A stretch of 64,000 nucleotides of DNA, taken from positions 27,094,001 to 27,158,000 of the forward strand of contig OZ024746.1 in assembly GCA_964016885.1 (NCBI GenBank), given 5' to 3'. Shown here one piece after another: positions 5,160-59,726 of the stretch. Below the pieces are notes generated by a model. It saw only the letters and a program-made list of their open reading frames with translations. It did not search any database and had not been told where the DNA came from. This DNA is from Eledone cirrhosa. Lineage: Eukaryota. Both the position numbers and the translations under genes were made by a program. Position 1 is the first letter of the stretch, and every line of letters starts with the position of its first letter.

Positions 5160-5437
5160 ACTGCCAAATCAACTTTTTCAAATACAAGTCGATGTTGAAC
5201 GGTATGTCAAATTTATTTATCTATAAAACTGTCTATATTGTATTTTGTCTGAAGAAGGCATAACATATTGTTAATATGATATCCCTGAAATATATATAGT
5301 GAAATAGATATGGTTTTATAAATATAGTTTCCATTTATTTAATATCGTAAATATACTCCAAATACTTGTTGAGTGCTTTTATATCAGTTATAAATATTTA
5401 CTAGTTGTAACCCAACAATTTAAATATAACTTTCCAT
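5160..5437 (+). mobile_element. Short hammerhead-containing Penelope-like element inserted in the TA satellite (same family as 29005-29270)
   Basis: Unique island inside the satellite; shares ggtatgtcaa...taaaact...atatggttttataaa(t/c)atagtttccatttat with 29130-29265; has gagtgctt box. Confidence 0.75.
5242..5305 (+). ncRNA. Type I hammerhead ribozyme motif
   Basis: attttgt|CTGAAGA(5249-5255)|agg..catatt-gtt-aatatg..cct|GAAAT-ATAT-ATA(5287-5298)|gtgaaat; stem I has G-U pairs. Confidence 0.65.
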
Positions 5438-8191: not shown

Positions 8192-10699
8192 TTCTTTATT
8201 TACCATAAAGGCATAAAAAGAAGGGACAAATAGAAAGGGGGAGTTTACATACAATCGAGTAAAAAGGGTATAAAATGAAAATAATCGAAAACAACCTCAA
8301 AAGGGAGGGGACGTGATGGGGGTTGCACCCCCCCGAAAAAGTGTGCAATCCTTTGCCCGGGGAGCACATGGAGAAGGTGCTCCCCTCTCCTTCACTTCTT
8401 TACCTACAGGATGGTATACAGAGAAGGCCCATTTACACGAGCCATTCTCGCCACTATCACCCACCTTTCATAAAACTGCCTGTGGCCAAGCACCTCTCTC
8501 TCCATTCTTATCCTTCTTCCGAAGTGATATCGGAAGAAGTAGACCAGACTATGGCCAGAGAGGAAGTTGTCTGACCTCAGACCTTTCAATCGTGTCCACC
8601 AAACAACCTCTTTCAACATGGCTATTACGCACAGAAAAACCGCCTTTGCTTCCTTTGTGAAGAGGGGAGGCGGTTTGATTGTCATCACGGACTCGGCGGT
8701 CAATTGAATCGGCGCCACCCGCGACAGCAGTCGTTCGGCGTAGCCCCACAGATCAGCCACGCCCGGACATTGCACCAATGCGTGCGCAACGGTTTCTTCG
8801 TGACGCACGCATCTAGGGCAAATCTTTTTCGAGGGATCCCTGCCCGAGAGCCCGTGTCTGTAGAGCCTCTCTCGAACGGGTAGAGCCCCTCGGTAGCACT
8901 GCCAGGCGAGTGACTTCTGGAAGTTGTCCATTGGTCCCGGGCCGAAAGTCCTACCGAACAGGCTGGCCAGTTCGTCCTCTTCCATGTCCAGCGACTCTCC
9001 AAGGGTGTCATCGCCTCTGCTAGCCACCAGCCATCTATAGAATGATGAGGTGGATTCTCCACCGATGGCCTGGCCCGCTTGCCAGAGAGCCCTGAGCGCC
9101 TGAGCACACTCAGTGTGCCAGTCTCCCAGTTTTCCGGATCTTTGCTTGACCCAGGACTGCAGCTCGGTGAGCGAGACGAGTCTCGGAAAGGCTCGTTTCA
9201 CGAACGGAGCCCACACCGGTTGACCAGTGAGGAATACCTGTAGGTGCCGTAGCCTTAATGCGTGCCTACGCATCATCAACCACGGCATCCCCAGCCCTCC
9301 TTTCGAAGGTTGTTGGCAGCAGATGGATCTTCTCACCATAGGAGGGCGCTTCTTCCAAAGAAATTGGAAGAGCATGCGTTCCATGGTGGTGAGTGTTTCC
9401 TTAGGGCAAGGCACGACAGTCAGGCGGTAGTAAGTGACGGATGCTATGTAAATGTTCGCCACCTCCGCCCGGCCTTTTAGGGACAGCTTATACTTGGCCC
9501 ATTTCTGGGTTAGTGCAAACACCTTGTTCGTAACCTCGTCCCAGTTCTTTTCCACCTGGAGGTCCGGTCCAAACCAGACCCCAAGCAACTTTACCGGGCC
9601 CTCCGTCCAGTGTCCGACGACACCGTCGGGAGGCATCGGTCTGCCTCTCCACGTTTCGAGTTGCAGCCCGATGGACTTTTCCCGGTTCAGTTTCGCTCCT
9701 GACAACCTTTCGTAATCCTCCAGTAAGGTACCGATCGCCTCGATCTCCGAGTCGGTCGATACCATTACTGTTACGTCGTCAGCGTAGGCCGACACCGCTT
9801 TGCTCAATCCTGGTTCCAGGAGGATACCCTGCAACAACTCTAACTTCCTCAGTAAAGGCTCGAGAGTCAATACGTACAGAAGGGAGGAGAGAGGGCACCC
9901 CTGTCGAATGGATCGTGTGATTTCGAACGGCTTCGAAAGGTAGCCATTCACCTTGATCCTAGAACAGATGTGGTTGCTATGTAAGGCAGTGATCCAGCCT
10001 CTGAAAACAGGACCGAACCCAGCCGCCGCTAGCACCGCATCCAGGTAACCATGGTCGACCCTATCGAAGGCCTTAGACTGATCCAAGTTGATCAGAGCCC
10101 CACCGAAGCCGGGTTTGTTGCCAACCCTCTCTATGATGTATCGCATGAGGTGGAGGTTATCGTGAATGGACCTGGATGGGATAGCACATGTCTGCGCATC
10201 TCCCACCAGGCTACCCACGACAAGCGCCAACCTCTTTGCTAACACCTTGGCCAAAATCTTTTACTCTGTGTTTAGCAGGGTTATGGGCCGAAAATTATTT
10301 ATACTATCCCCCTTGTTCTCGTCATTCCTCACCAGCGAGACTACGCCCTTGGCTACAGAACAAGGAATTCTCCCGTTCTGCTGCCAATTGCAGTAGACCG
10401 CTTCGAGGAGTTCAGAGAAGAAGACCGGCATTGCTAAATAAAGTTCGTAAGGTATACCATCGAGACCTGGAGATTAGCGTCTGCTGCATTGGCTCAGCGC
10501 ATCTCCGATCTCATCAGCCGAGATTGGTCCCTCGCAGGACTCTGCCTCTTCGCTCGAGAGACGCGGCAGGCCGTCGAGGTATGGACCGAAATCCACGTCC
10601 CCGCCCGGACCCTCGCCTCCCCCGAATAATCGGGCAAAGTGCCTTTGAAAGGCCTCGCACATCTGCTTAGGCTCCCGGATCACCCGTCCATCCTCGTCT
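8192..10699 (-). mobile_element. 5'-truncated Tx1/L1-clade LINE inserted in TA/TGCA satellite
   Basis: RT ORF plus 3' UTR ending aataaagaaa(ta)n; GC-rich island flanked on both sides by TA repeats. Confidence 0.9.
8404..10254 (-). pseudogene. Tx1-like ORF2: reverse transcriptase and C-terminal CCHC zinc knuckle; no endonuclease; in-frame stop just upstream
   Basis: DQSKAFDRV, RQGCPLS, AYADDV, LGVWF, KGGLG, CPRC..EETVAHALVQC; upstream FRPITLLNTE*KIL; ORF 10474-10683 is a further upstream piece. Confidence 0.92.
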
Positions 10700-10778
10700 T
10701 ATGCATATATATATATATATAGATAGATAAATATACACGGGTGTGTATGATTGTGTATAGAAGATTATATTAATAAGA

Positions 10779-11093
10779 GGAATTCCAAGTTTGTCTGATT
10801 TACTCGTTTTATCTATAATCCTTTAAAATTTATAATGGTATTATAATGAAATAGTATGATAGAATATTAAATTCTAAGTGTTAATTGAACAAGTACTTTC
10901 ATGCTTTCGCAATCTTCAGGTTCATAATGTGTGGTGACAGTCAAGTTTGCAATTTTCAACTGTCACAGTTGAAAATTACTTGTTCAATTAACACTTAACA
11001 TTTAATATTCTATCATACTATTTCATTATAATACCATTATAAATTTTAAAGGATTGTAAATAAAACGAGTAAATCAGACGAAGTTGGAATTCC
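10779..11093. mobile_element. Fold-back element: about 115 bp inverted arms around a hammerhead-containing spacer
   Basis: ggaattccaa...gaacaagta (10779-10895) is the reverse complement, with a few mismatches, of tacttgttc...ttggaattcc (10977-11093). Confidence 0.85.
10886..10924 (-). ncRNA. Minimal type I hammerhead ribozyme motif
   Basis: Minus strand: tgaac|CTGAAGA|t-tgc-GAAA-gca-t|GAAA-GTAC-TT|gttca; stem I tgaac/gttca, GNRA loop II, palindromic loop III. Confidence 0.75.
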
Positions 11094-13471
11094 TATATAT
11101 GTATATATATAAATACATACATACGTATGTATTAATACATATACTGTATATACATTTGTATAATACTGTTTGTGGTCTTTATTTACTATATTATTTGTTC
11201 CTGGAGCTAAGCTATAAATATTTATATCATTGGGAGCGATGCCAGAGAAGAAAAAGAAAACATCGAAAATAAAGACCCCCCCCCCCTCCCTAAAAAAAAC
11301 AACAACAACAACAAACAAACACAATTAAAATAATAGAAAAGAAAAACCACTGGATTAACCTAGCAATACTTAGTTTCATTCCCAATTATTCCGATTTCGA
11401 ATCTCGCTGGGATAGAATCTGATTCAGTCGTTAGGCTGCTGCCATGAAATACCGTTACCATCTTAGAGTCATTACTGTCATCTATTCCCTATCACACCCT
11501 CCCACATCTATAACTTTCTCTCAATATTGGTAATGCTTGTTAGAAATGAATAGAAAATGTAAAAAAAAAAAAAAAAAAAAAAAAGAAATTAGTATTTGTT
11601 TTCTTCAGTGATTTTTATACAAATACTTGCTATGGTTATATTTGGGGATGATCATGTTGCCAAAATTGCCAATAAAACACACGCACTATCGATTGCCAAA
11701 AATTGCCATAAAAGACATGCACTGTCGATTTCTACTTCAGCTTTATTCTGTGACCTCCTCAATAACTATTTGTTCTTCTCTGTGTCTCCTCTTCTTTTTG
11801 GTCTTATCCCATTTACTCCATCTTGGAAAAAACGTTTTAAATGTTCTTACACAAAATTCTGAGAGAATGACTTTAGATAAATATAAACACATCAGCCCTT
11901 ACGGTACCATATTTTTAGTGAAAGATTGCCTGTGATTTTCAAATCATTTGAAAAATAATTTCGAATTTCAAAGGATTTAGTAATAACTATATTTGTCATT
12001 ATTAAGTTGGTGCTTGGAGCCTAACTTAAAGGTTCTTACATAAAATTATGACGGAAGTTTTAAATTTATATTCGAAGAGTTTGAAATAAGCAGAACCTGA
12101 TGTGGTGGTTACAGGTGAGGTGGTTTTAAAAGCAACAGCCGCGTATTATAGAACTAGGAGGAGTTTAGGGTAGTTTGGTATAAACAAATTATATAGCTTC
12201 TAAAACATTACAAAAAGTACTAGTCATCGCAATATTTTAGTTTTCTAGTTATTATAGAGACGATCACTTCTAAAAAATAGGCAATTAATTTTAGCAATAT
12301 TATATCATATTGCTAAAATTCAGCACAGCTGTAATAACTATTTAAAAGCTTTTGTTTCAGTATTGTAGTATTAAACAGTCTCGTGACACCTGGTTTACGA
12401 TCATATCGTAATTGAATAATATTAAAACTCTTTGTTATATATATTCACTAAATAATTGACTCTACGTCAACCAGTCCACGATCTTATTATACTCTTATAT
12501 ATTGATTATTTAATCACTACTTCGGCATTTACTCTGAAGGTTATGGTTCCCTGATGAGGTCATGTCCAGATTCATACATATTTATTTCTACATAGCGTCG
12601 ATTTCTAATTACTTCGCGTATTAACTATATTATAATTAACTTAGAAATATGATATATATCATATATATTATGATTTTATTGTTTGGCGATTCTCGTTTGT
12701 AATGATATACATTGTACTCTGTATTTCTAATACGATCCTCAAATATCGAACTGACATGTTTGCTTTGAATTTTTCTCATAATTTGATGTCAGTTAATTTC
12801 TAAAATTATTTTTCTTATGTTTAACGAATAGTATCTGCTCCTATGTGAGAAGGTAAATTGTCCCAAATATCCATGTATGGCTTGTAATTTCCTGTGATTT
12901 TATAAATGTTTACAGTTTTTCAAATAGAATTTTATAGGGAATTTAAGCTCAATTAAATCTGTATTCCTTACTTTCATTAATCTGTGGTTATTCACCCAAC
13001 AAAAGACCGCAAGCTTACTATTTATCTATATGCATAAGTCTCGATAATGAAATAAACTTCTTGATTCAAAACGCTGACCTACATACCACCAACCTTGATA
13101 AAAGTGTTCATATGAAATTCAGTAATTCCATATAGATGTCTTTATACCTGCATTAAAACTGGAGGGATTTTCTAGCATTAACATTATATTAGGCTTATCT
13201 GTCGTTATAATTGTAGATTTCATCTTCCTGAATCTGAGAGATTTAAGTAGTAAAAGCTTCGAGATAAAACGATAACATTAACATTCACGAATGTCAAACA
13301 GTATAAAATGGATCTCCATCTTAATTCTCCTATTTGCAGAATATCTTTAGAATATATTAACTATAAGTATGTAAAGATCTCAGTATCCCCGAGCAATTCT
13401 GTTATATTTATTTTAGAAATCATTTCAGGCGGCATTATAATTTCTTTCAGGAAGAAGACATGCAAACTGAA

Positions 13472-15399: not shown

Positions 15400-15440
<41 letters not shown>

Positions 15441-15447
<7 letters not shown>

Positions 15448-15995
15448 AAGGTTTAGCAAATAATGAAAAAGTTTCAAAATAAATTTAAAAAAATTAACTT
15501 TACCTACTATAGTTACCTTTACCGATCGGTTTCGAATCCCAAAAATAAACGGGGGCCTTACGGCCTTCGTTGCAAAGAGAGATTCTCATCAGAAGGTTCT
15601 TTTCATTCGAAGAATATAAAATTCTTGAATTTAAATTACGAACTAGCGCTATTCAAAACTGTTCCGGAGATGAGGGTGAAATGAGGTGGAATCAATTTTT
15701 TCAAGGGCCGAAGTAAAGATAGAGGCAGAAGGAGGTAGGTCAAACTAGCAGCGGCTATCACTAGCAGCAGTCAGGACGACCAAGTTTGCACTCAACAAGA
15801 GAGGAGTTTAGTAATAATAGGATATGTATTCCTTCACGCACAGGCGCAAAGAGACACACGTATTGTCCAACCAAATGCCAATGTGGTTCAATGGCAGGTT
15901 AATAAATTAACGAGCCAGAACATATATAAACAAGGTTTAGCAAATAATGAAAAAGTTTCAAAATAAATTTAAAAAAATTAACTTTACCTACTATA
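15441..15995 (-). mobile_element. Retrozyme-like element: 484 bp unit with about 70 bp terminal direct repeats and one canonical hammerhead
   Basis: tataaacaaggtttagc...tacctactata at 15441-15511 and 15925-15995; no credible ORF; (TA)n on both sides. Confidence 0.85.
15515..15597 (-). ncRNA. Canonical type I hammerhead ribozyme
   Basis: Minus strand: acctt|CTGATGA|gaatctc...gggattc|GAAAC-CGATCG-GTA|aaggt; all core nucleotides, G10.1-C11.1, perfect stem I, palindromic loop III. Confidence 0.88.
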
Positions 15996-16143: not shown

Positions 16144-16506
16144 TTATTAAAATAACAGATTAAATATATATATACAAACTTACATATACCAAAACACTAT
16201 AATTAATGTATACATACATATACATATTTGCTATATATATATATAAATATATATACGCTTGCCCAAGATGCCACGCAGTGAGATCGAACCCAGGACCTAA
16301 TTACGAAGCGAGCTTATTAAACATTCGGCCATGCTGTATTCACACCTCCCTATGTATGTCATACATAACACACACACACACACACCGTCTCACATACATA
16401 CACTCTCACACTGCAGATGCATACTTACAGCCTCACACATATCTCCCTACACACGTTATGCATAGCGTCGACACACACATACACACACTTCCTCATATTT
16501 TCCTTT

Positions 16507-17030
16507 GCTTCTGTCATTTATCTTCCACCACTGTCCGAAGCGTTGACTTATCTAACTTCAAAGTGCAATTATATATTGAATTCGTACTTTTGTTCGTAAC
16601 TTTGTGTTTAATTTTCGGTTGTTTGCTTTGTTTTTCTTGTTAATATATATATATATATAGTTATGTAATAAACAGCATAATATAATTAATTCATTTACCA
16701 ATGGTTTCCCGAAGACAGACGAGCTTGACACTTGTGTATGTCTTCATTCATCAGAACAAATTTATTATCGATAAGAAATTTGTTCTGATGAATGAAGACA
16801 GACATAAGTGTCAAGCTCGTCTGTCTTCGGGAAACCATTGGTAAATGAATTAATTATATTATGCTGTTTATTACATAACTATATATATATATATTAACAA
16901 GAAAAACAAAGCAAACAACCGAAAATCAAACACAAAGTTACGAACAAAAGTACGAATTCAATATATAATTGCACTTTGAAGTTAGATAAGTCAACGCTTC
17001 GGACAGTGGTGGAAGATAAACGACACAAGC
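16507..17030. mobile_element. About 520 bp near-perfect palindrome with head-to-head hammerheads
   Basis: Axis at atcgat 16767-16772; each arm includes an internal (TA)n tract; few mismatches. Confidence 0.92.
16777..16851 (+). ncRNA. Type I hammerhead ribozyme motif (mirror copy on minus strand about 16688-16762)
   Basis: aatttgtt|CTGATGA(16785-16791)|at-gaagacagac...gtctgtcttc-gg|GAAAC-CATTG-GTA(16831-16843)|aatgaatt; 10 bp stem II. Confidence 0.78.
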
Positions 17031-17070
17031 ACTCTCTTTTACTTTACCTTTCCTACGGAAATACTTCATT

Positions 17071-17102
<32 letters not shown>

Positions 17103-17177
17103 TTAGGTAATTCCGAAGGAAAAGGAAAGGTAAAAAGAGTGCTCTATGTATAGAACAGAGCTATTTAATTAGAAAGG

Positions 17178-17356
17178 GAACAACAGAAAATATAACTACT
17201 CCATTACCAAAGGTTTCTGGATCCCAGACAATAATAATATACGTCTGGGTCGGTTGTCAGACAGAGATGTTATCTGACGACCGATCCAGACGTATATTAT
17301 TATTGTCTGCGATCCAGAAACCTTTGGTAATGGAGAAGTTATATTTTCTGTTGTTC
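17178..17356. mobile_element. About 180 bp palindrome with hammerhead
   Basis: gaacaacagaaaatataact...agttatattttctgttgttc; small loop near 17262-17272. Confidence 0.88.
17268..17334 (+). ncRNA. Type I hammerhead ribozyme motif
   Basis: ttat|CTGACGA(17274-17280)|cc-gatccagacg...tgtctgcgatc-ca|GAAAC-CTTTG-GTA(17317-17329)|atgg; minus-arm copy reads CTGACAA (core mutated). Confidence 0.65.
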
Positions 17357-17368
17357 ACTTTCTAATTA

Positions 17369-17370
17369 AA

Positions 17371-21573: not shown

Positions 21574-21788
21574 TGGTTTCTAGTATAGGCACAACGGCAG
21601 CAATTTTAGGGGAGGGGAAAGTCGATTAATTCGACCCCAGTGCGTGACTGGTACTTTATTTTACCGACCCCGTAAGGATGAAAGGCAAATATAACTTCGG
21701 CAGGATTTGAACTCAGATCCTTAAGGGTCGTAACTCTATGCTGCAAAGCATGGTGTCCGACTCTGCCGATACTGCCAATCCACCGCCC
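21574..21788 (-). mobile_element. Full-length tRNA-derived SINE with Meta-like core
   Basis: Minus: gggcggtggattggcag...gagttcaaatcc...gcctttcatccttacggggtcgg; duplicated flank aacagaaataat. Confidence 0.85.
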
Positions 21789-21813
21789 TAACAACAGAAA
21801 TAATAATAATAAT

Positions 21814-22200
21814 AATTGTTTCTACTTTAGGCACAAGGCCAGCAATTACCCAGTACATTACTGGTACTTTATGTTATCGACCCCGTAAGGATGAAAGACA
21901 AAGTTAACCTCGGCGGGATTTGAACTCAGATTGTAAAGGGACGTAACTATGCTAGAAAGCATGGCGTCCAACCCTCTACCGATACTGCCATCTGATTTAG
22001 GCACAAGGTAAATAATTTGAGAAGCGGGGAAAGTCGATTAAATCGACCTCAGTGCGTGACTGGTACTTTATTCTAACGACCCAGTAAGGATGAAAGGCAA
22101 AGCTAACCTCGGCCTTTCATCCTTACGGGGTCGATAAAATAAAGCACCAGTAATGCACTGAGTAATTGCTGGCCTTGTGCCAAAAGTAGAAACAATCATT
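21814..22200 (-). mobile_element. SINE cluster: copy 21814-21990, partial copy 21991-22112, inverted (+) partial copy 22111-22200
   Basis: Same core gcctttcatccttacggggtcgataaaataaag; tail ccttgtgcc..aagtagaaacaat. Confidence 0.82.
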
Positions 22201-22379
22201 ATTATTATTAAGGGTCGTGAATTGGCAGCATCGGTAGAGTGTCGGACAAACAACAACAACAAAATCCCAGTCACTACCATTAACCCTCCCCCACCACCAC
22301 CACCACCACCACCACCACAACAACAACAAGACCATCTATAATAGAGTTGAAACAAGGAAGGTCAACGTCTTGAAGAGTT

Positions 22380-25357: not shown

Positions 25358-25923
25358 TCTATATCTACATATAATATAAAAGATTGGAACTTCCATCATC
25401 CTTTTAAGAAACGTGCACCAATCACGTCTATGCAATGACACACCCTTTACAGGCAGGCAGAAGATGAACTATTTCCTAGAGGTCACTATCCTTGAAAGCA
25501 ATCATCAAGAGAAAATGCATTTGTTCCCAAGATTCCTCTTATCCCTTCCTCCACCGAGCTGCCTTTCAAATTCTCAAGACTTCAGTTCCTTGTTAGAGCC
25601 AGTTTTGCTATGACCATACATAAGGCTCAGGCTCAGAGTTTCAAAGTTGTAAAATTGAATACAAGAGAATCCCTTTTTACCCATGGACAGTTATATGTAG
25701 GTTGTTCACGAGTAGGAACACCTAAAAATCTTCATATACTATGCACGAACGGTAAAACGAAGAATCTGGTGTATCTGGAAGATATTTTACTGTTATTTTG
25801 TCCCACACACCACGGTCTCACTTCGTATTGTAAACCAGACAAACATCCGATACAGTCATTTTTTCTTCTACCTGTCTTCTCTTTTCATATGCTTACCCGG
25901 GCGAAGCTGGGTACATCAACTAG
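25358..25923 (+). mobile_element. Internally deleted Helitron retaining the Pif1-helicase C-terminus
   Basis: 5' A|TCtatatc; MTIHKAQ..FTHGQLYVGCSRVG; 3' hairpin tacccgg-gcgaag-ctgggta then CTAG|T. Confidence 0.88.
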
Positions 25924-26294
25924 TATATAATAAACGCATGATAACTTTTTAAATATTTTAAAATATATTTCCTTGTATGTCGTTCATAAGTATATGTTGT
26001 GTTTTATGCAGTGGCGGACTGGGTCTAAAAATATTGGTTGCCAGATGAAGGGGGCTCACCTACATATAGAATGCTACATATGGAATGCTAATTTTTATAA
26101 TGAATAAATAATATTTTCGAAAAATACATAATTGGAAAGAAAACAGTACAATCAAATTTTTGCGGAAAAATATCTCACCTTCTCCAATAAAAAATATTAT
26201 GTATTTTGCGAAATCCAGAGACTTTCAATAATGACCAGAAGTCGACCCTAAATATTACTAATAGCTCTAGGACACCACACCTTTTAAACTTTGA

Positions 26295-26598
26295 TTTTGA
26301 AAGTAGGTTTATAATAATCAATTTTCATTGCACTTTTGTATCTGTCTCGGTGGCCTAATTGGAGGAATCATAGACGGAGGTGATCCTGGTCTGAAGTTCG
26401 ATTCTGGTCGGGAGTAGAGCTCTCGCTAGACCTTTTCAGTTTTTTTTTTTCAATGGGTTGTAAAATAAAAACTGAGAAAGGTTACACCAGGATTGAACCC
26501 AAGGCCAGGATCTCCACTGTCTCTAGTACTTACCGCTAGGCCACAGAGACAACTACGAAAATCTAATGAAAATTCATACTTATAAACCTACTTTCAAA
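26295..26598. mobile_element. Inverted-repeat element whose two arms each carry a tRNA-like Pol III head
   Basis: ttttgaaagtaggttt...gtggccta..gttcgattc mirrored by gattgaacc...taggccac...aaacctactttcaaaa. Confidence 0.65.
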
Positions 26599-26804
26599 AT
26601 TTTCAATACAAAATTTTGCGGTGCCGTTCATGTCTTTCTTAATGTTATGGCTCCTACTTAAGATCGACTTCTAAATCATTTGGGTGTTCCATAAACTACA
26701 TCATCGTTTTGTTTCACATCTATCTAGACCATATTTTAACCTGTAACCCATGTTTCATTTCTATTGCACCTCATTTCTCCCCCCCCCCCTCTCTCTCTCT
26801 CTCC

Positions 26805-26839: not shown

Positions 26840-27039
26840 ACGAAGGAAGTGTGGTAAGGAACCAGGTGGACCAGAGTACTCGATACTATGGATAGTAGAG
26901 TGGGTAATAGGAAAAGAGTCAAAACCCCGACGGCAGAGCTCAAGCCGTTTCGACGGCTATTTCTGGACTGAAATAGAGTCCAGAAATAGCCGTCGAAACA
27001 GCTTGATCTCTGTCGCCGAGGTCTTGACTCTTTTCCTAT
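26840..27039. mobile_element. TA-embedded element with 63 bp-arm palindrome (26907-27039)
   Basis: ataggaaaagagtc...gactcttttcctat, loop gaaatag; gagtactc box at about 26873; CGAAAC present but no canonical CTGANGA. Confidence 0.8.
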
Positions 27040-28572: not shown

Positions 28573-28765
28573 GTAGGTCCCGGGTTGAGTCGGGGATAAC
28601 CACAGTAAGTAAGGTACTCAATACATGCAGAGTAAAAAATATTTATTGTATAGAAGGAGCTTCTACAGGACTAGAACTGTTTCATTCAGATGAAATCTTC
28701 AGGAATCTCCTGAAGATTTCATCTGAATGAAACAGTTCTAGTCCTGTAGAAGCTCCTTCTATACA

Positions 28766-28773
<8 letters not shown>
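28572..28773. mobile_element. TA-embedded element with perfect 66 bp-arm palindrome (28639-28773) of hammerhead motifs
   Basis: Arms identical by eye, 3 nt loop atc; right arm CTGAAGA(28710-28716)-tttcatctgaat-GAAAC-agttcta-GTC, then aataaa. Confidence 0.88.
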
Positions 28774-28814
<41 letters not shown>

Positions 28815-29485: not shown

Positions 29486-31120
29486 GTATATATATAAATG
29501 TATGTATTTAAATCACCAGCCTCTGCATAGCTTTCGTTCACTATATCACCTTCACTCTTCATCTGTACTAGTGAACTGAAGGCTAAATGATACAAACCCA
29601 GACCCAATAGTTTAGGTCTCGACACGAAGTCATTAATCACGTGGTTATTTCTACACTTATGTCGCGAGGAATACTTATTTAGTTTGACAACTGCATTTCT
29701 AAGAAGTTTAATCTACGTAAGTATAAAGAAGAATATTTCTGGACCTGACAATTTATAAACCAACGTGTGTATTTATGTGTGTGCGTGCATGTGTTAGAGA
29801 TTTGACAGTTTTCGCTAATATGAAGAAATAAACGAGTAAGATGAAATTCATTGATAAGCTCTTGTTTATCTCAATAATAAACAGACGTAATGATAAATGT
29901 GTTATTTCCCCAAGGTAAATTGTGCTGGATATATAACGATTTCCTTCTCAAACAGAGTTGCTTTTTAAGAGGAGGATTTATCTACTACGAAAGGTGTGAT
30001 GAAAAAATAAAAACCAAGATCAATATCAGAAAAGGTTGGAACTAGAAAATGTAATTCGTTGAACTAGATCGAAACAAAAGAAAGAAAGAAAAATTAAGAA
30101 AGAGAAACACTTAGACAGTCTTGTCTTGCATTCTGTTTTCTGTCTTGTGTCTTGTGTATTGTTTATAATCTATAATTGTGGAATAATAAGAGGTTTATAA
30201 AAGATTACATTGACAGATCTGTTGAAAGACGTTAAATTTGATTTCAATGTGTATTTGTACAATTCATTTAACTTTCGATATTGTTTCTACTTCACCCTCT
30301 CTTCATTTCTTTCTTTCTAAGTCTGCACTTTTGTCTTCTTGTTAATCGTCGTTCTTACATTCATGGAGCGTGCAGTCGATTCACTACATTTGTCGCGTTA
30401 AAAGAAAAAACAATATTCTTTTGCTCTTTTTTTTTTTGTGTGGGAAGAAATAACTCGAGTGTATTTAATTGTTCCTGATATTTCAACTCTCACCATTTTT
30501 CAATTCTACCTTTCAGTGAAGTATTCATAACAAAAGTTAAACTTTTACATTTTTAAAAACTATCAAAAGATTTAATAATTCACTGCAAAATATTACTAAC
30601 CTAACCACCAACGAAATAAATATCATTGACTCACACTTTCTTTGATGGTTTAGTCAGAAGAGGAAGGACAGAAACAATAACCGTTTTATGATTTTCATGA
30701 TTGATGGTAGAAAAGGAAAAAAGTTATTTACAGACCCGAAACATCCTTTGAATTCCACTGATTCCACCGAAAAATAAAATGCATGGAAGGTTCAGGTAGA
30801 GGTATTAAGCCGGGCAACCTAGTAAGTCTAACAGGAACTGCTTTCCCGATGGGCTTCCACGTAGTTTCATACCACCTATCAAAATTTCAGACACAAAGCT
30901 TTGGTTGACTTGAATCTATAGTAGCAGCCACTTGTCCAAAGTGCCACCAAGTACCGTGGGACTCGACACTAAGCAGATACAAAGCGAAATTACTTTTTTA
31001 ATTAAAGAGGTATCATTGAGTCTGTATACCTTGGCGTTCAAAATCGGCATGGAACATAATACAGATAAAGCCAAATGAAATATCTATGGAGTAAAATTAT
31101 TGTGAGGTAGTAAAAGGGAT

Positions 31121-31990
31121 ATGAGGTGGTGTCTGGTTCGATCCAGATCCACAGGTGGGAAGAAACTGAGAAAAGGTTATGAACAATGTGTTCACTTTCA
31201 CCTAGGAAGTTTTGATGAACACATATATTACCAGCTTTTTGTTGATGGAATAGACTTTTCTAACTACCGTCTCTCCAACATGATTGCTATGGATGAAACA
31301 GCAGTATCCATGGGTCAAAGCTCTCAATCTATAATTGATCAAAGGGGTGCGGCGTCAATTTACATTCCATCAACTGGTTACGAAACTGCACGAGTTACGT
31401 GTACCTTGGCAATTTGTCTCGACGGAAGCAAAGCCCCACATCTTATCATCACTAAAGGCAAGAAAGATAAAATTGAACGCGTTTCAGGTATCTGTGTTCT
31501 GGAAACTGAAAAGGCGTGGTGCACACATGCAGTTTTAAGGAAGTGGGTCGATTTCATGCTGCCATTGATTTTGCGTGGAACCCAAAGAAGTCTCATAGTC
31601 TGGGATTCAGCCAGCACGCACCGCGCCAAAGATATGAAGAACTTTCTTGCAGAAAGAAGAATCTATCAAATCATGACTCCCGCAGGAATGACCGCCTATC
31701 TCCAGACTCTTGACATCGCACTGAATAAACCATTCAAGGACCATCTGGGCATGGAAATAAATGACTACATCGAAAACAGAATAGCGAGAAATGAGCGGGG
31801 AAATTTCGTGAAGCCCAGCCTTCAAGAGATCGTGACTTGGGTGGGAAATTCATGGAACAAAATAACAGATAGCTGTGTCATGAATGCACTAGGAGCAGGC
31901 TATCTGGATAAGAACTCTCCATTCAATTCGACCTCTGTCGCTCAACATGAAAGACGAAAATTGAGGGACGAAAATTCTGCAGGCAATTGA
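31121..31990 (+). pseudogene. pogo/Tc2-type (Tc1-mariner superfamily) DDE transposase catalytic domain, N-terminally truncated
   Basis: NMIAMDET, IVWDSASTH, LQTLDIALNKPFK catalytic motifs; no DNA-binding HTH seen; apparent C-terminal frameshift. Confidence 0.88.
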
Positions 31991-33239: not shown

Positions 33240-34500
33240 CTTCCTTCGAAGGTGAAGCATGCACAAAGTTCTCGATCTCTTATCGCAGCAAGAAAATCTT
33301 GTCCACTGAGGCCAGTGACTCTCGCCAACAGAGTTCTGTTGGTTATGTTTGGACGTCCTACTCGGTGCTTTGCATCTGGTGACCAGAGAAGCAGTTTTCA
33401 TGTAGGTTCATCAAGGCGGTAAACATGACCAGCAAGAGCCAAGCGATGGGATCGAACTTTCGATGGAACTCGTGGCAGGTCACCATAAAGGACTTTGTTG
33501 GTAATGTTTCTTGCCATTAAATGTTGAACACCACTCGAAAGGAACCATCAAGTCTCTTTGGGCGAGTGACACCGAGAGTCCAGGATTCTGTACCATATAG
33601 TAAGATGGTTTTGAGTAGAGCTTTGAAAACTTTGTATTTCGTAGAAGTTGGGTTGGGAGCTTTCCAGACTTTTTGCTTGGCAAATTTTGATGGTTATATC
33701 AGGGTCAGTGAAACCATCCATATAATTAAATTCTTGAACCAGTTCGATAGGTGAACCGTCAGAAGTATGTAGCCGACTGAAAGTGGATGGATTCAAATGC
33801 ATGAATTTAGTTTTAGAAGCATTGAGAAACAAACCTGCCTCTTGGCAGGAAATCTCGACACAATGAAGGAAGTCCTGAACTGATTCGATGGTGTCCTTCA
33901 GAAGAGCCATGTCATCTGCATAGTCAAGATCAGGGAGCACAATAGCTTGATGACAGTGACATCGACGACTCATGATCATTATACCGTCAGTATCTGTGAA
34001 AGGAGTGCGAAGGGTGTAGTCGAAACATATTAAAAGGAACGAAGCAAGCGGATAACACTACAGACGCCTGTATCGATTGGAAACATATTCGTTTCTTTTT
34101 CAGGTGTAAGAACAACAGCTGAGGTGTTTCCATACATGCTACGAGTATCAGCAGCTATATCAAGAAGAATTCCATAAATTAAAGGCTTTACGGAAATCAA
34201 TAAAAGCTAGAATTGCTTCCTTGTCATAATTTTTAAGCTCCTCGACAATAAAGCAAGAAGGTCAAATATTGTGGATGTACATAATTGGAAACCATTTTGG
34301 TTTGGACGAAGAACTGTGTCGTTAACTGGACAGATTCTGTTCAGCAAACAACGATTGTAGATTTTGGGGGCAACTGAAGTGAGGGACAAGCCTCTGTAGT
34401 TGTCTGTGAAGCGCAGATTACCTTTCTTTAGGATTAGAGTGAAGTCAGATACACCCCAATCCTTAGGTCGATAGCCATTGTGAGTTCCATTGCAGAACTG
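33240..34500 (-). pseudogene. Decayed RTE/RTEX-like LINE reverse transcriptase
   Basis: NYRGLSLTSVAPKIYN...LRPNQNGF and DLDYADDMALL in broken frames. Confidence 0.8.
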
Positions 34501-34519
34501 ATGTATGTATGTATGTATG

Positions 34520-35065
34520 TATGTATCCCAGTACAACCTGTCACATGGTCGGGTCGTTAGCGACTAAACTGGCTTTGGACATCCTGCAGGACTAAAAACA
34601 AAACCTGTCAAAGGGCAAAGGAGCTCTTAAGAGTCAATGGCCAACCAAAATCACCGGGAGAGATGACCCCTTAGCCTTTGTCAAGGCAGAATTCAAGGAG
34701 AAGGAAAACTCTGATATAACACCTGCAACCCTGATGGTATCCAATGATGTTGACTTGTTCTTCTTTTTGGTAAATATCATCTTGGTTAAGAGAGTGGGAC
34801 TGGCTTTGTGCAGTGCCTTTGCTCACTATAAAAGATTCACGGCACAGGCATTGCTTTATATATGGAGATCTCTCTGCACTTGTCATCACATGGTATCATG
34901 GGCCCATCACTATGTGTCAGTAATTGTCACAAGTGTAGTGTTTGTACCAGAGTTTTCAAGTCGCTGGCTAGACTAAAAAGTCACACTCGTTCAGCGCATC
35001 GGTAGGGGTTCTCCTACATGGATATAAAGTAGTGGCCGTACTCGAAAACGAGTTGGCAGCCACCA
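34520..35065 (+). mobile_element. Bipartite non-autonomous RTE-derived element, 5'-truncated copy
   Basis: Near-identical to 35071-35672; RTE-type 5' UTR motif ggagaaggaaaactctga; 3' end encodes [21 protein letters not shown] then (TATG)n. Confidence 0.8.
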
Positions 35066-56701: not shown

Positions 56702-56804
<103 letters not shown>

Positions 56805-56837
56805 AGTAAGTATGTTTTGAAACAGTGAGCGAGTTTG

Positions 56838-57041
56838 AAATTAGAAAATATATAGCTTTCACCGTATTTTTAACTAAAGGAATTTTAGTTTGATAACGGG
56901 GTTTAGAACCCTCAGATAAATGGAAAAAGATGAGTATGTACGTCAATACTCACCTTTTTCCATTTATCTGACGGTTCTAAACCCCGTTATCAAACTAAAA
57001 TTCCTTTAGTTAAAAATACGGTGAAAGCTATATATTTTCTA

Positions 57042-57045
<4 letters not shown>
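56838..57045. mobile_element. 100 bp-arm near-perfect palindrome beside (TA)n
   Basis: aaattagaaaatatatagctttc...gaaagctatatattttctaattt; loop gtacgtca 56938-56945. Confidence 0.9.
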
Positions 57046-57097
<52 letters not shown>

Positions 57098-59096: not shown

Positions 59097-59525
59097 ATGT
59101 ACTGTGGAAAATAGAAAAAAGTAAAATATTTTTCGTGAGGAACAAATATATTTCTTCGGCAGTGAGGCCACCCATATTTTAATTGCATATAAACATATTA
59201 TATATGATTATATATGTTTTCATATACACCTCTCTTATGATTGAAGGCTGCTTTATGGCTACCACTAATTATATATATATGGGATAACAAATTATCGTTA
59301 TAGGTAATCCAGTTAGAGGTTGTGAGTACTCCGTATTGTGGATAGTTTTAATGTACGGCGTTGTTTGACTCAACAAGAGGTTTCCTTAGTTAGGTGGCGA
59401 GTTCCTGGGAATTCCTATGCAGGTTAATCTTGGAGTAATAATAGTGAAAGAGTAAAGAATAAAATGGTCAACAGTACAAAAATAAAACCCTTTTTGTACT
59501 GTTGACCATGTTATTCTTCACTCTT

Positions 59526-59726
<201 letters not shown>

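Follow-up and report, generated by a model that had tools for sequence, protein, structure and literature searches.

Does cleavage by a hammerhead ribozyme set the point at which the inverted copy of a repeat begins? The question is raised by a short fold-back in 64,000 nt of Eledone cirrhosa DNA (the window throughout), a stretch rich in repeats and microsatellites, for which the original prediction placed the start of the second arm at the predicted cleavage site of a compact hammerhead motif. An answer depends on where the second arm truly begins, on whether other copies of the same repeat family are joined at the same place, and on the kind of element from which the fold-back is likely to descend.

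Anatomy of the fold-back and its hammerhead motif

The locus lies between two TA-type tracts and next to a truncated LINE-type reverse transcriptase (RT) on the minus strand, and its features are collected in Table 1. That it is a fold-back is confirmed by inverted arms at 10778-10899 and 10973-11094, which extend over 122 nt at 94% identity, with 6 mismatches within the 118 positions 10778-10895 of the arm alignment. The element reaches about 38 nt further to the left than the inverted repeat, an extension that had at first been omitted.

Table 1. Features of the fold-back and its flanks, in positions of the window
Feature	Positions	Strand	Basis
Left TA-type microsatellite flank, inferred target; common to neighbouring truncated LINE	10700..10739	.	
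Left arm, 5'-truncated 3' end of high-copy repeat family	10740..10963	-	read depth and family continuation
AC-rich 3' extension ('tail'), left arm only	10740..10777	-	family depth; inverted repeat ends at 10778/11094
Minimal type I hammerhead motif, 39 nt	10886..10924	-	motif scans and fold; activity predicted only
Built-in stem-loop, its foot the 5' truncation point; candidate snap-back primer	10934..10963	-	fold of 10740-10963
13-bp palindrome, apex of fold-back, centre 10964	10951..10977	.	alignment and X1 contigs
Right arm, inverted copy	10965..11094	+	13 nt from apex, 56-nt gap, then mirror of 10895-10778
Right TA-type microsatellite flank	11095..11150	.	

When the right arm is aligned to the sense strand of the left arm, 10965-10977 mirrors 10963-10951, 56 nt are then absent, and the mirror resumes at 10895/10894. 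The gap is clean, follows 12-13 mirrored nt, and corresponds to the mirror of 10951-10896, which is most of the hammerhead. Because the mirror of 10963-10951 precedes the gap, the hairpin at 10951-10977, matched by none of 300 mononucleotide shuffles, is the apex of the whole fold-back. The original prediction had described it as a separate small hairpin: the hairpin is real, its separateness is not, as the right arm opens with the 13 nt of 10965-10977, and the accompanying suggestion that it marks snap-back priming is supported. The headline claim of a second arm beginning at the cleavage site is not supported. The cut is predicted between 10891 and 10890, with its mirror position between 10981 and 10982, and the arm truly begins 74 nt upstream of it, at the apex (10964/10965); position 10977, taken for the arm start, is the far edge of the 56-nt gap, 4-5 nt before the cut. 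What resumes at 10977/10978 is the long part of the right arm, at that same distance from the cut or at up to 9 nt if one mismatch is allowed. A near-repeat that opens with TGAAA stands at each edge of the gap, and within it exact microhomology amounts to only 1 nt (T), the remainder being imperfect.

The hammerhead itself, proposed as a compact 39-nt motif on the minus strand at 10886-10924, is borne out by motif scans, the strict form of which matched at 2 places in the window but in none of 200 block-wise dinucleotide shuffles. The motif is composed of a 5-bp stem I, a CUGAAGA core, a stem II of 3 bp capped by a GAAA loop, a GAAA core, a palindromic stem III region and U17, and it contains the core CUGANGA ... 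GAAA ... UH together with stems I and II. Overlooked at first was a U.U mismatch that closes stem II beside the core (U10.1.U11.1) in place of the typical G10.1-C11.1 pair; U.U at 10.1/11.1 is described as a tolerated variant in natural hammerheads (PMC3088659). Stems II closed in this way occur in three different families of the window (10919-, 136+/115-, 28710+/28702-) and are apparently common in the genome. Other searches and tests of the motif were negative: Rfam returned no match at gathering score over the whole window and, over 10700-11150, weak matches only (28 with E of at most 10), none a hammerhead and all far below the cut-offs; the folding energy of the 39-mer alone is no better than that of shuffles (z -0.28); a MAFFT alignment of seven hammerhead motifs of the window carried no informative signal; and two metagenome pattern scans yielded 0 and 0 matches. 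The 17 viral matches to a looser pattern, none with BLAST similarity to the element, were taken as chance.

A likely need for a dimer had also been predicted, and the modelled energies and palindromic stem III favour it. The predicted dimer, in a double-hammerhead topology, reaches -16.4 kcal/mol against -4.2 kcal/mol for the monomer, whose stem III cannot be closed in the energy model; the predicted dimer pairs A14 with U17 as well, which may hinder cleavage. In a transcript spanning both arms the pairing probability of stem I is 0.0, against 0.31-0.39 in a 104-nt fragment, and of the motif no more than the final 9-10 nt survive in the second arm. By these models the copy at 10924-10886 is probably inert, and any action of the hammerhead would be that of a dimer, formed in a tandem transcript of the parent element.

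Family copies in sequencing reads

Four of 17 listed sequencing runs (X1, X4, X7 and X15) were compared with the locus at 80% likeness; no RNA run was listed as carrying the sequence, which says nothing about expression either way. In organism A, a run organism that has 0.63 of sampled words in common with the window and that may be a relative and not the window's own species, the family is present in high copy, with 2226 X1 contigs and 2633 X15 reads, totals to which the LINE edge of the stretch also contributes; summed X1 depth is 0.9e5-7e5 across the left-arm bins 10744-10959, and relatives occur in runs X4 and X7. The 39-nt motif is free of all 23 distinct variable positions that are listed between 10745 and 10963 (P about 0.008, a value that rests on the listed positions only and that further ones could alter), and the three insertions listed inside it, from run X4, are all in loop II.

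Behind 10963 the family diverges from the window in 18 contigs of X1, one of X4 and one of X7, three of the four runs; since the family continues past 10963, this position is the 5' truncation point. The family sense sequence at 10960-10963 and its continuation are pyrimidine-rich and end in CAG, resembling, at the level of sequence, a 3' splice site; PLEs (Penelope-like elements) keep an intron in the pseudo-LTR. Leftward, family depth extends to 10740, the edge of a masked repeat, and the true end may lie slightly further. A second 3' end of the family is found near 10766, where 27 X1 contigs and one X7 contig pass into TA-type repeats. The tail is confined to the left arm, where it extends 38 nt beyond the point at which the right arm stops and no less than 26 nt beyond the family end at 10766.

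Apexes and joints can be followed in the same reads. Six X1 contigs extend beyond 10977 and from there mirror 10950 and the positions below it, giving an identical apex without the gap, with a consensus agreement of 0.71 and a median of 10 loose letters. Five contigs leave at 10965, and a form shorter by 7 nt, near 10956, is seen in two contigs and five reads, the reads all from X15 with 2 starts, suggesting that apexes of the family cluster near 10956-10965. Five other head-to-head joints appear in X1; measured downstream from the cut, their right arms start at 34, 9, 27, 60 and 56 nt, and their left arms end at -37, +12, +55, +66 and +73 or more. The examination of junction position across family copies that the original prediction had called for thus gives no support to a fixed position, as all five right-arm starts and all five left-arm ends lie more than 5 nt from the cut; each of these joints rests on one contig, at a depth of 3-18, and all come from a single run, among the loose ends listed, a small and biased sample in which resumption upstream of 10895 cannot appear as a skip on the window reference. 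Apparent 'opposite strands' joints at 10808/11057 and 10830/11040, which join near-mirror positions, were discarded as arm-swapping artefacts.

Likely affiliation and origin

Taken as a whole, the locus is quite probably a short head-to-head fold-back of a high-copy hammerhead repeat, likely the truncated 3' end of a PLE, in which the 56-nt loss probably has nothing to do with RNA cleavage. PLE insertions are described as carrying an adjacent inverted, 5'-truncated copy and a one-sided tail of 30-40 bp, with a bias toward microsatellites (PMC8557442). At the present locus an adjacent inverted, 5'-truncated copy is found together with variable junctions (from the alignment and the five X1 joints), a tail of that size is found on the left arm only, its outer edge abutting a masked repeat, TA-type flanks lie on both sides, with only TA repeats scoring as target duplications, and the hammerhead sits in the pseudo-LTR upstream of the tail, a position like that in the Anolis Poseidon element PAc. 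Head-to-head arms, junction palindrome, one-sided 3' tail (at least 26-38 nt), putative (TA)n targets and palindromic stem III match published PLE insertions, and the two family 3' ends, set apart by an AC-rich segment, correspond to the PLE tail. No ORF for a telomerase-like PLE RT or a GIY-YIG endonuclease was found among the 149 of 153 candidate window ORFs compared with Pfam, and a scan of the window for PLE RT/GIY-YIG motifs gave no match, an absence expected of a short 5'-truncated copy. As there is no linked RT/GIY-YIG ORF, we infer PLE membership by analogy, as likely, and with it that the left-arm family is a PLE pseudo-LTR with its sense on the minus strand.

Parallels with well-described PLEs are close. 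With the inverted pseudo-LTRs of Pen2a_Av, Pen2_Av and Pen3a_Av (PMC8557442) the locus shares the head-to-head inverted 5'-truncated copy, the junction palindrome, the one-arm tail, a putative microsatellite target and an internal deletion of microhomology type, whereas it measures only about 355 bp, with no ORF attached and no readable target duplication. Minimal PLE hammerheads are reported to depend on dimers and to occur in pairs on opposite strands (PMC4209133). With these metazoan type I forms (Cervera and de la Pena 2014, PMC4209133) the motif shares an intact core, a 5-bp stem I and a palindromic stem III with a predicted need for a dimer, and as copies of theirs are reported on opposite strands 100-700 bp apart, so here they lie on opposite arms, the second mostly lost; it differs in that the 3-bp stem II closes on U10.1.U11.1 and not on the highly conserved G10.1-C11.1. 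In PAc (PMC11167929) the hammerhead is likewise followed by AC-rich 3' ends, about 100 nt downstream, the two ends defining the tail; the 3' ends here lie about 125 and at least 150 nt past the cut, and the right arm ends at 112; the PAc ORF starts at stem II, and here no long open frame leaves the motif in either arm. The locus is an ordinary example of a known structure and works like the remnant of an inverted PLE pseudo-LTR.

Anatomy, family status and variable joints are observed, and from them a course of insertion may be proposed of which priming, arrest and snap-back are the conjectural parts. An element-encoded endonuclease would nick a (TA)n tract, and reverse transcription would start in the AC-rich tail of the sense RNA, the region, at the tail ends, in which it is reported to start (PMC11167929). 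The plus-strand cDNA, from 10740 to 10963, would halt at the foot of the built-in stem-loop, and its 3' end would snap back and prime its own copying, producing the palindrome and the inverted arm; palindromes at inverted PLE junctions have been read as self-priming, and microhomology deletions are also described (PMC3846280). Between two near-identical TGAAA-led motifs 56 nt would have been lost, by a template skip or by later deletion from a long palindrome. Plus-strand 10959-10966 is the exact reverse complement of 10934-10941, and a first fold-back could have added 10964-10966, including the apex C that is foreign to the family, before re-annealing, an origin for which these 3 nt are only suggestive.

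Of the alternatives, the one that fares best, although it is improbable, is that the parent was a non-autonomous hammerhead element, either a non-LTR retrozyme or a derivative consisting of the pLTR only, moved in trans by a PLE. No ORF for the element was found in the window, the hammerhead is of type I, and animal retrozymes, reported as PLE derivatives (bioRxiv 10.64898/2026.07.22.740005), are likewise PLE-related short non-coding type I hammerhead repeats. Retrozymes are, as described there, head-to-tail tandem arrays with a hammerhead in each unit, whereas the locus is an inverted pair with a tail and one whole hammerhead, and the window contains no direct (head-to-tail) copy of the element. 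The family moreover extends upstream of 10963, though only 30 letters of that extension are visible.

Very unlikely is a junction set by ribozyme cleavage, whether the inverted arm was copied from a hammerhead-cleaved RNA end or jumped onto it; equally hard to credit is a cleavage-guided template jump, in which the polymerase would re-land at stem III and the cut site during snap-back second-strand synthesis. The closeness of the resumption point to the cut and the apparent conservation of the motif across family reads speak for such a junction. Against it, the resumption point keeps the 4-5 nt before the scissile bond and so does not match cleaved RNA, whose 3' product starts at the following G and lacks them; the true start of the arm is far upstream; and none of the five other X1 joints repeats the coincidence, which a random resumption point would produce at 11 of 173 positions (about 6%). 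The near-coincidence is approximate, and its best reading is that the edge of the 56-nt gap happens to lie there. Peaks of read ends in X15, which include 10883 and 10986, all fall on AATT sites (6 of 6 listed) and are an artefact of the library. For the single PLE examined in vitro, mutants unable to cleave still inserted as usual, and RNA-seq showed no read with either end at the cut (PMC11167929). Our literature search found no published report of PLE junctions fixed at a hammerhead cut; the family may already be listed in supplementary files.

Still less credible is a DNA transposon of MITE or fold-back type, inserted at TA sites and bounded by long terminal inverted repeats, the hammerhead match then being incidental. 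The 122-nt arms do end in TA-rich flanks, but the joints already vary among five contigs, the 3' arm ends are unequal, the family continues asymmetrically past the apex, and a hammerhead motif is not expected by chance; the fixed-TIR transposon that the original prediction had named as its refuting case was not seen. Least probable is that the palindrome is an assembly or chimeric-read artefact, as might be thought from the many fold-backs in the window and from the fact that no listed contig spans the whole stretch, since the arms mismatch at 6 of 118 positions and only one of them has the 56-nt gap, unlike a fold-back read, and related apexes recur in independent runs (X1 contigs, and the 7-nt variant in X15).

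Other repeats in the window and meaning of the locus

Several further fold-backs lie within the window, and in seven of these that were examined a cut could be assigned in three, with apexes at 125, 16769 and 17267; apex and cut are separated on both arms by 40, 74 and 62-63 nt, respectively, and no arm starts at the cut. The four with no cut assignment are at 26973, 28706, 56941 and 59486. The head-to-head fold-backs at 1-250, 16506-17031 and 17164-17370 belong to unrelated families and carry hammerhead motifs on both arms, with apexes upstream of the cut; the core is damaged or cut in one copy at 115 and in one of the element at 17164-17370. Fold-backs at about 28640-28775 and at 26907-27039 lie in (TA)n, with the apex inside or just before a hammerhead-like motif. 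Related hammerhead-like motifs with an 8-bp stem I occur inside long TA-rich tracts at 5249+ and 29176+. On the minus strand at 15438-15995 a hammerhead at 15592 forms part of a 484-nt partial tandem with a 74-nt perfect direct repeat, the upstream copy of which starts roughly 10 nt past the predicted cut, in a TA tract; it looks like a pseudo-LTR or retrozyme unit. Additional inverted-repeat structures are found at 56800-57050, 59441-59532, 21754-22248 and 26294-26600, two of which were tested, with no hammerhead assigned.

The element that adjoins the fold-back, at 8404-10699 on the minus strand, is of LINE type, 5'-truncated, with a 618-aa open stretch and TA/TGCA microsatellites on both sides. 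Its RT ORF (8407-10260) was considered as a parent of the fold-back and rejected on its domains, RVT_1 and zf-RVT, a layout that we take to be that of a LINE. A DDE_1 transposase fragment, weak Pif1-type helicase fragments and decayed RVT_1 fragments are present at 31106-31987, 25380-25927 and 33551-34563.

As found, the locus adds another decayed fold-back of PLE type to the several present in the window, and it matters little in itself. The function of PLE hammerheads is called unclear (PMC8557442), and their role is an open question (PMC8557442, PMC11167929). A junction fixed at the cut would be real evidence on that role, and the present data point against it; a cleavage-guided jump, if true, would make inverted PLE junctions a genomic footprint of cleavage in vivo and would give PLE hammerheads their first direct role in insertion. 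Because the family is present in high copy and its apex seems to recur where the stem-loop has its foot, counts of its junctions across a genome assembly could test the self-priming idea (PMC3846280).
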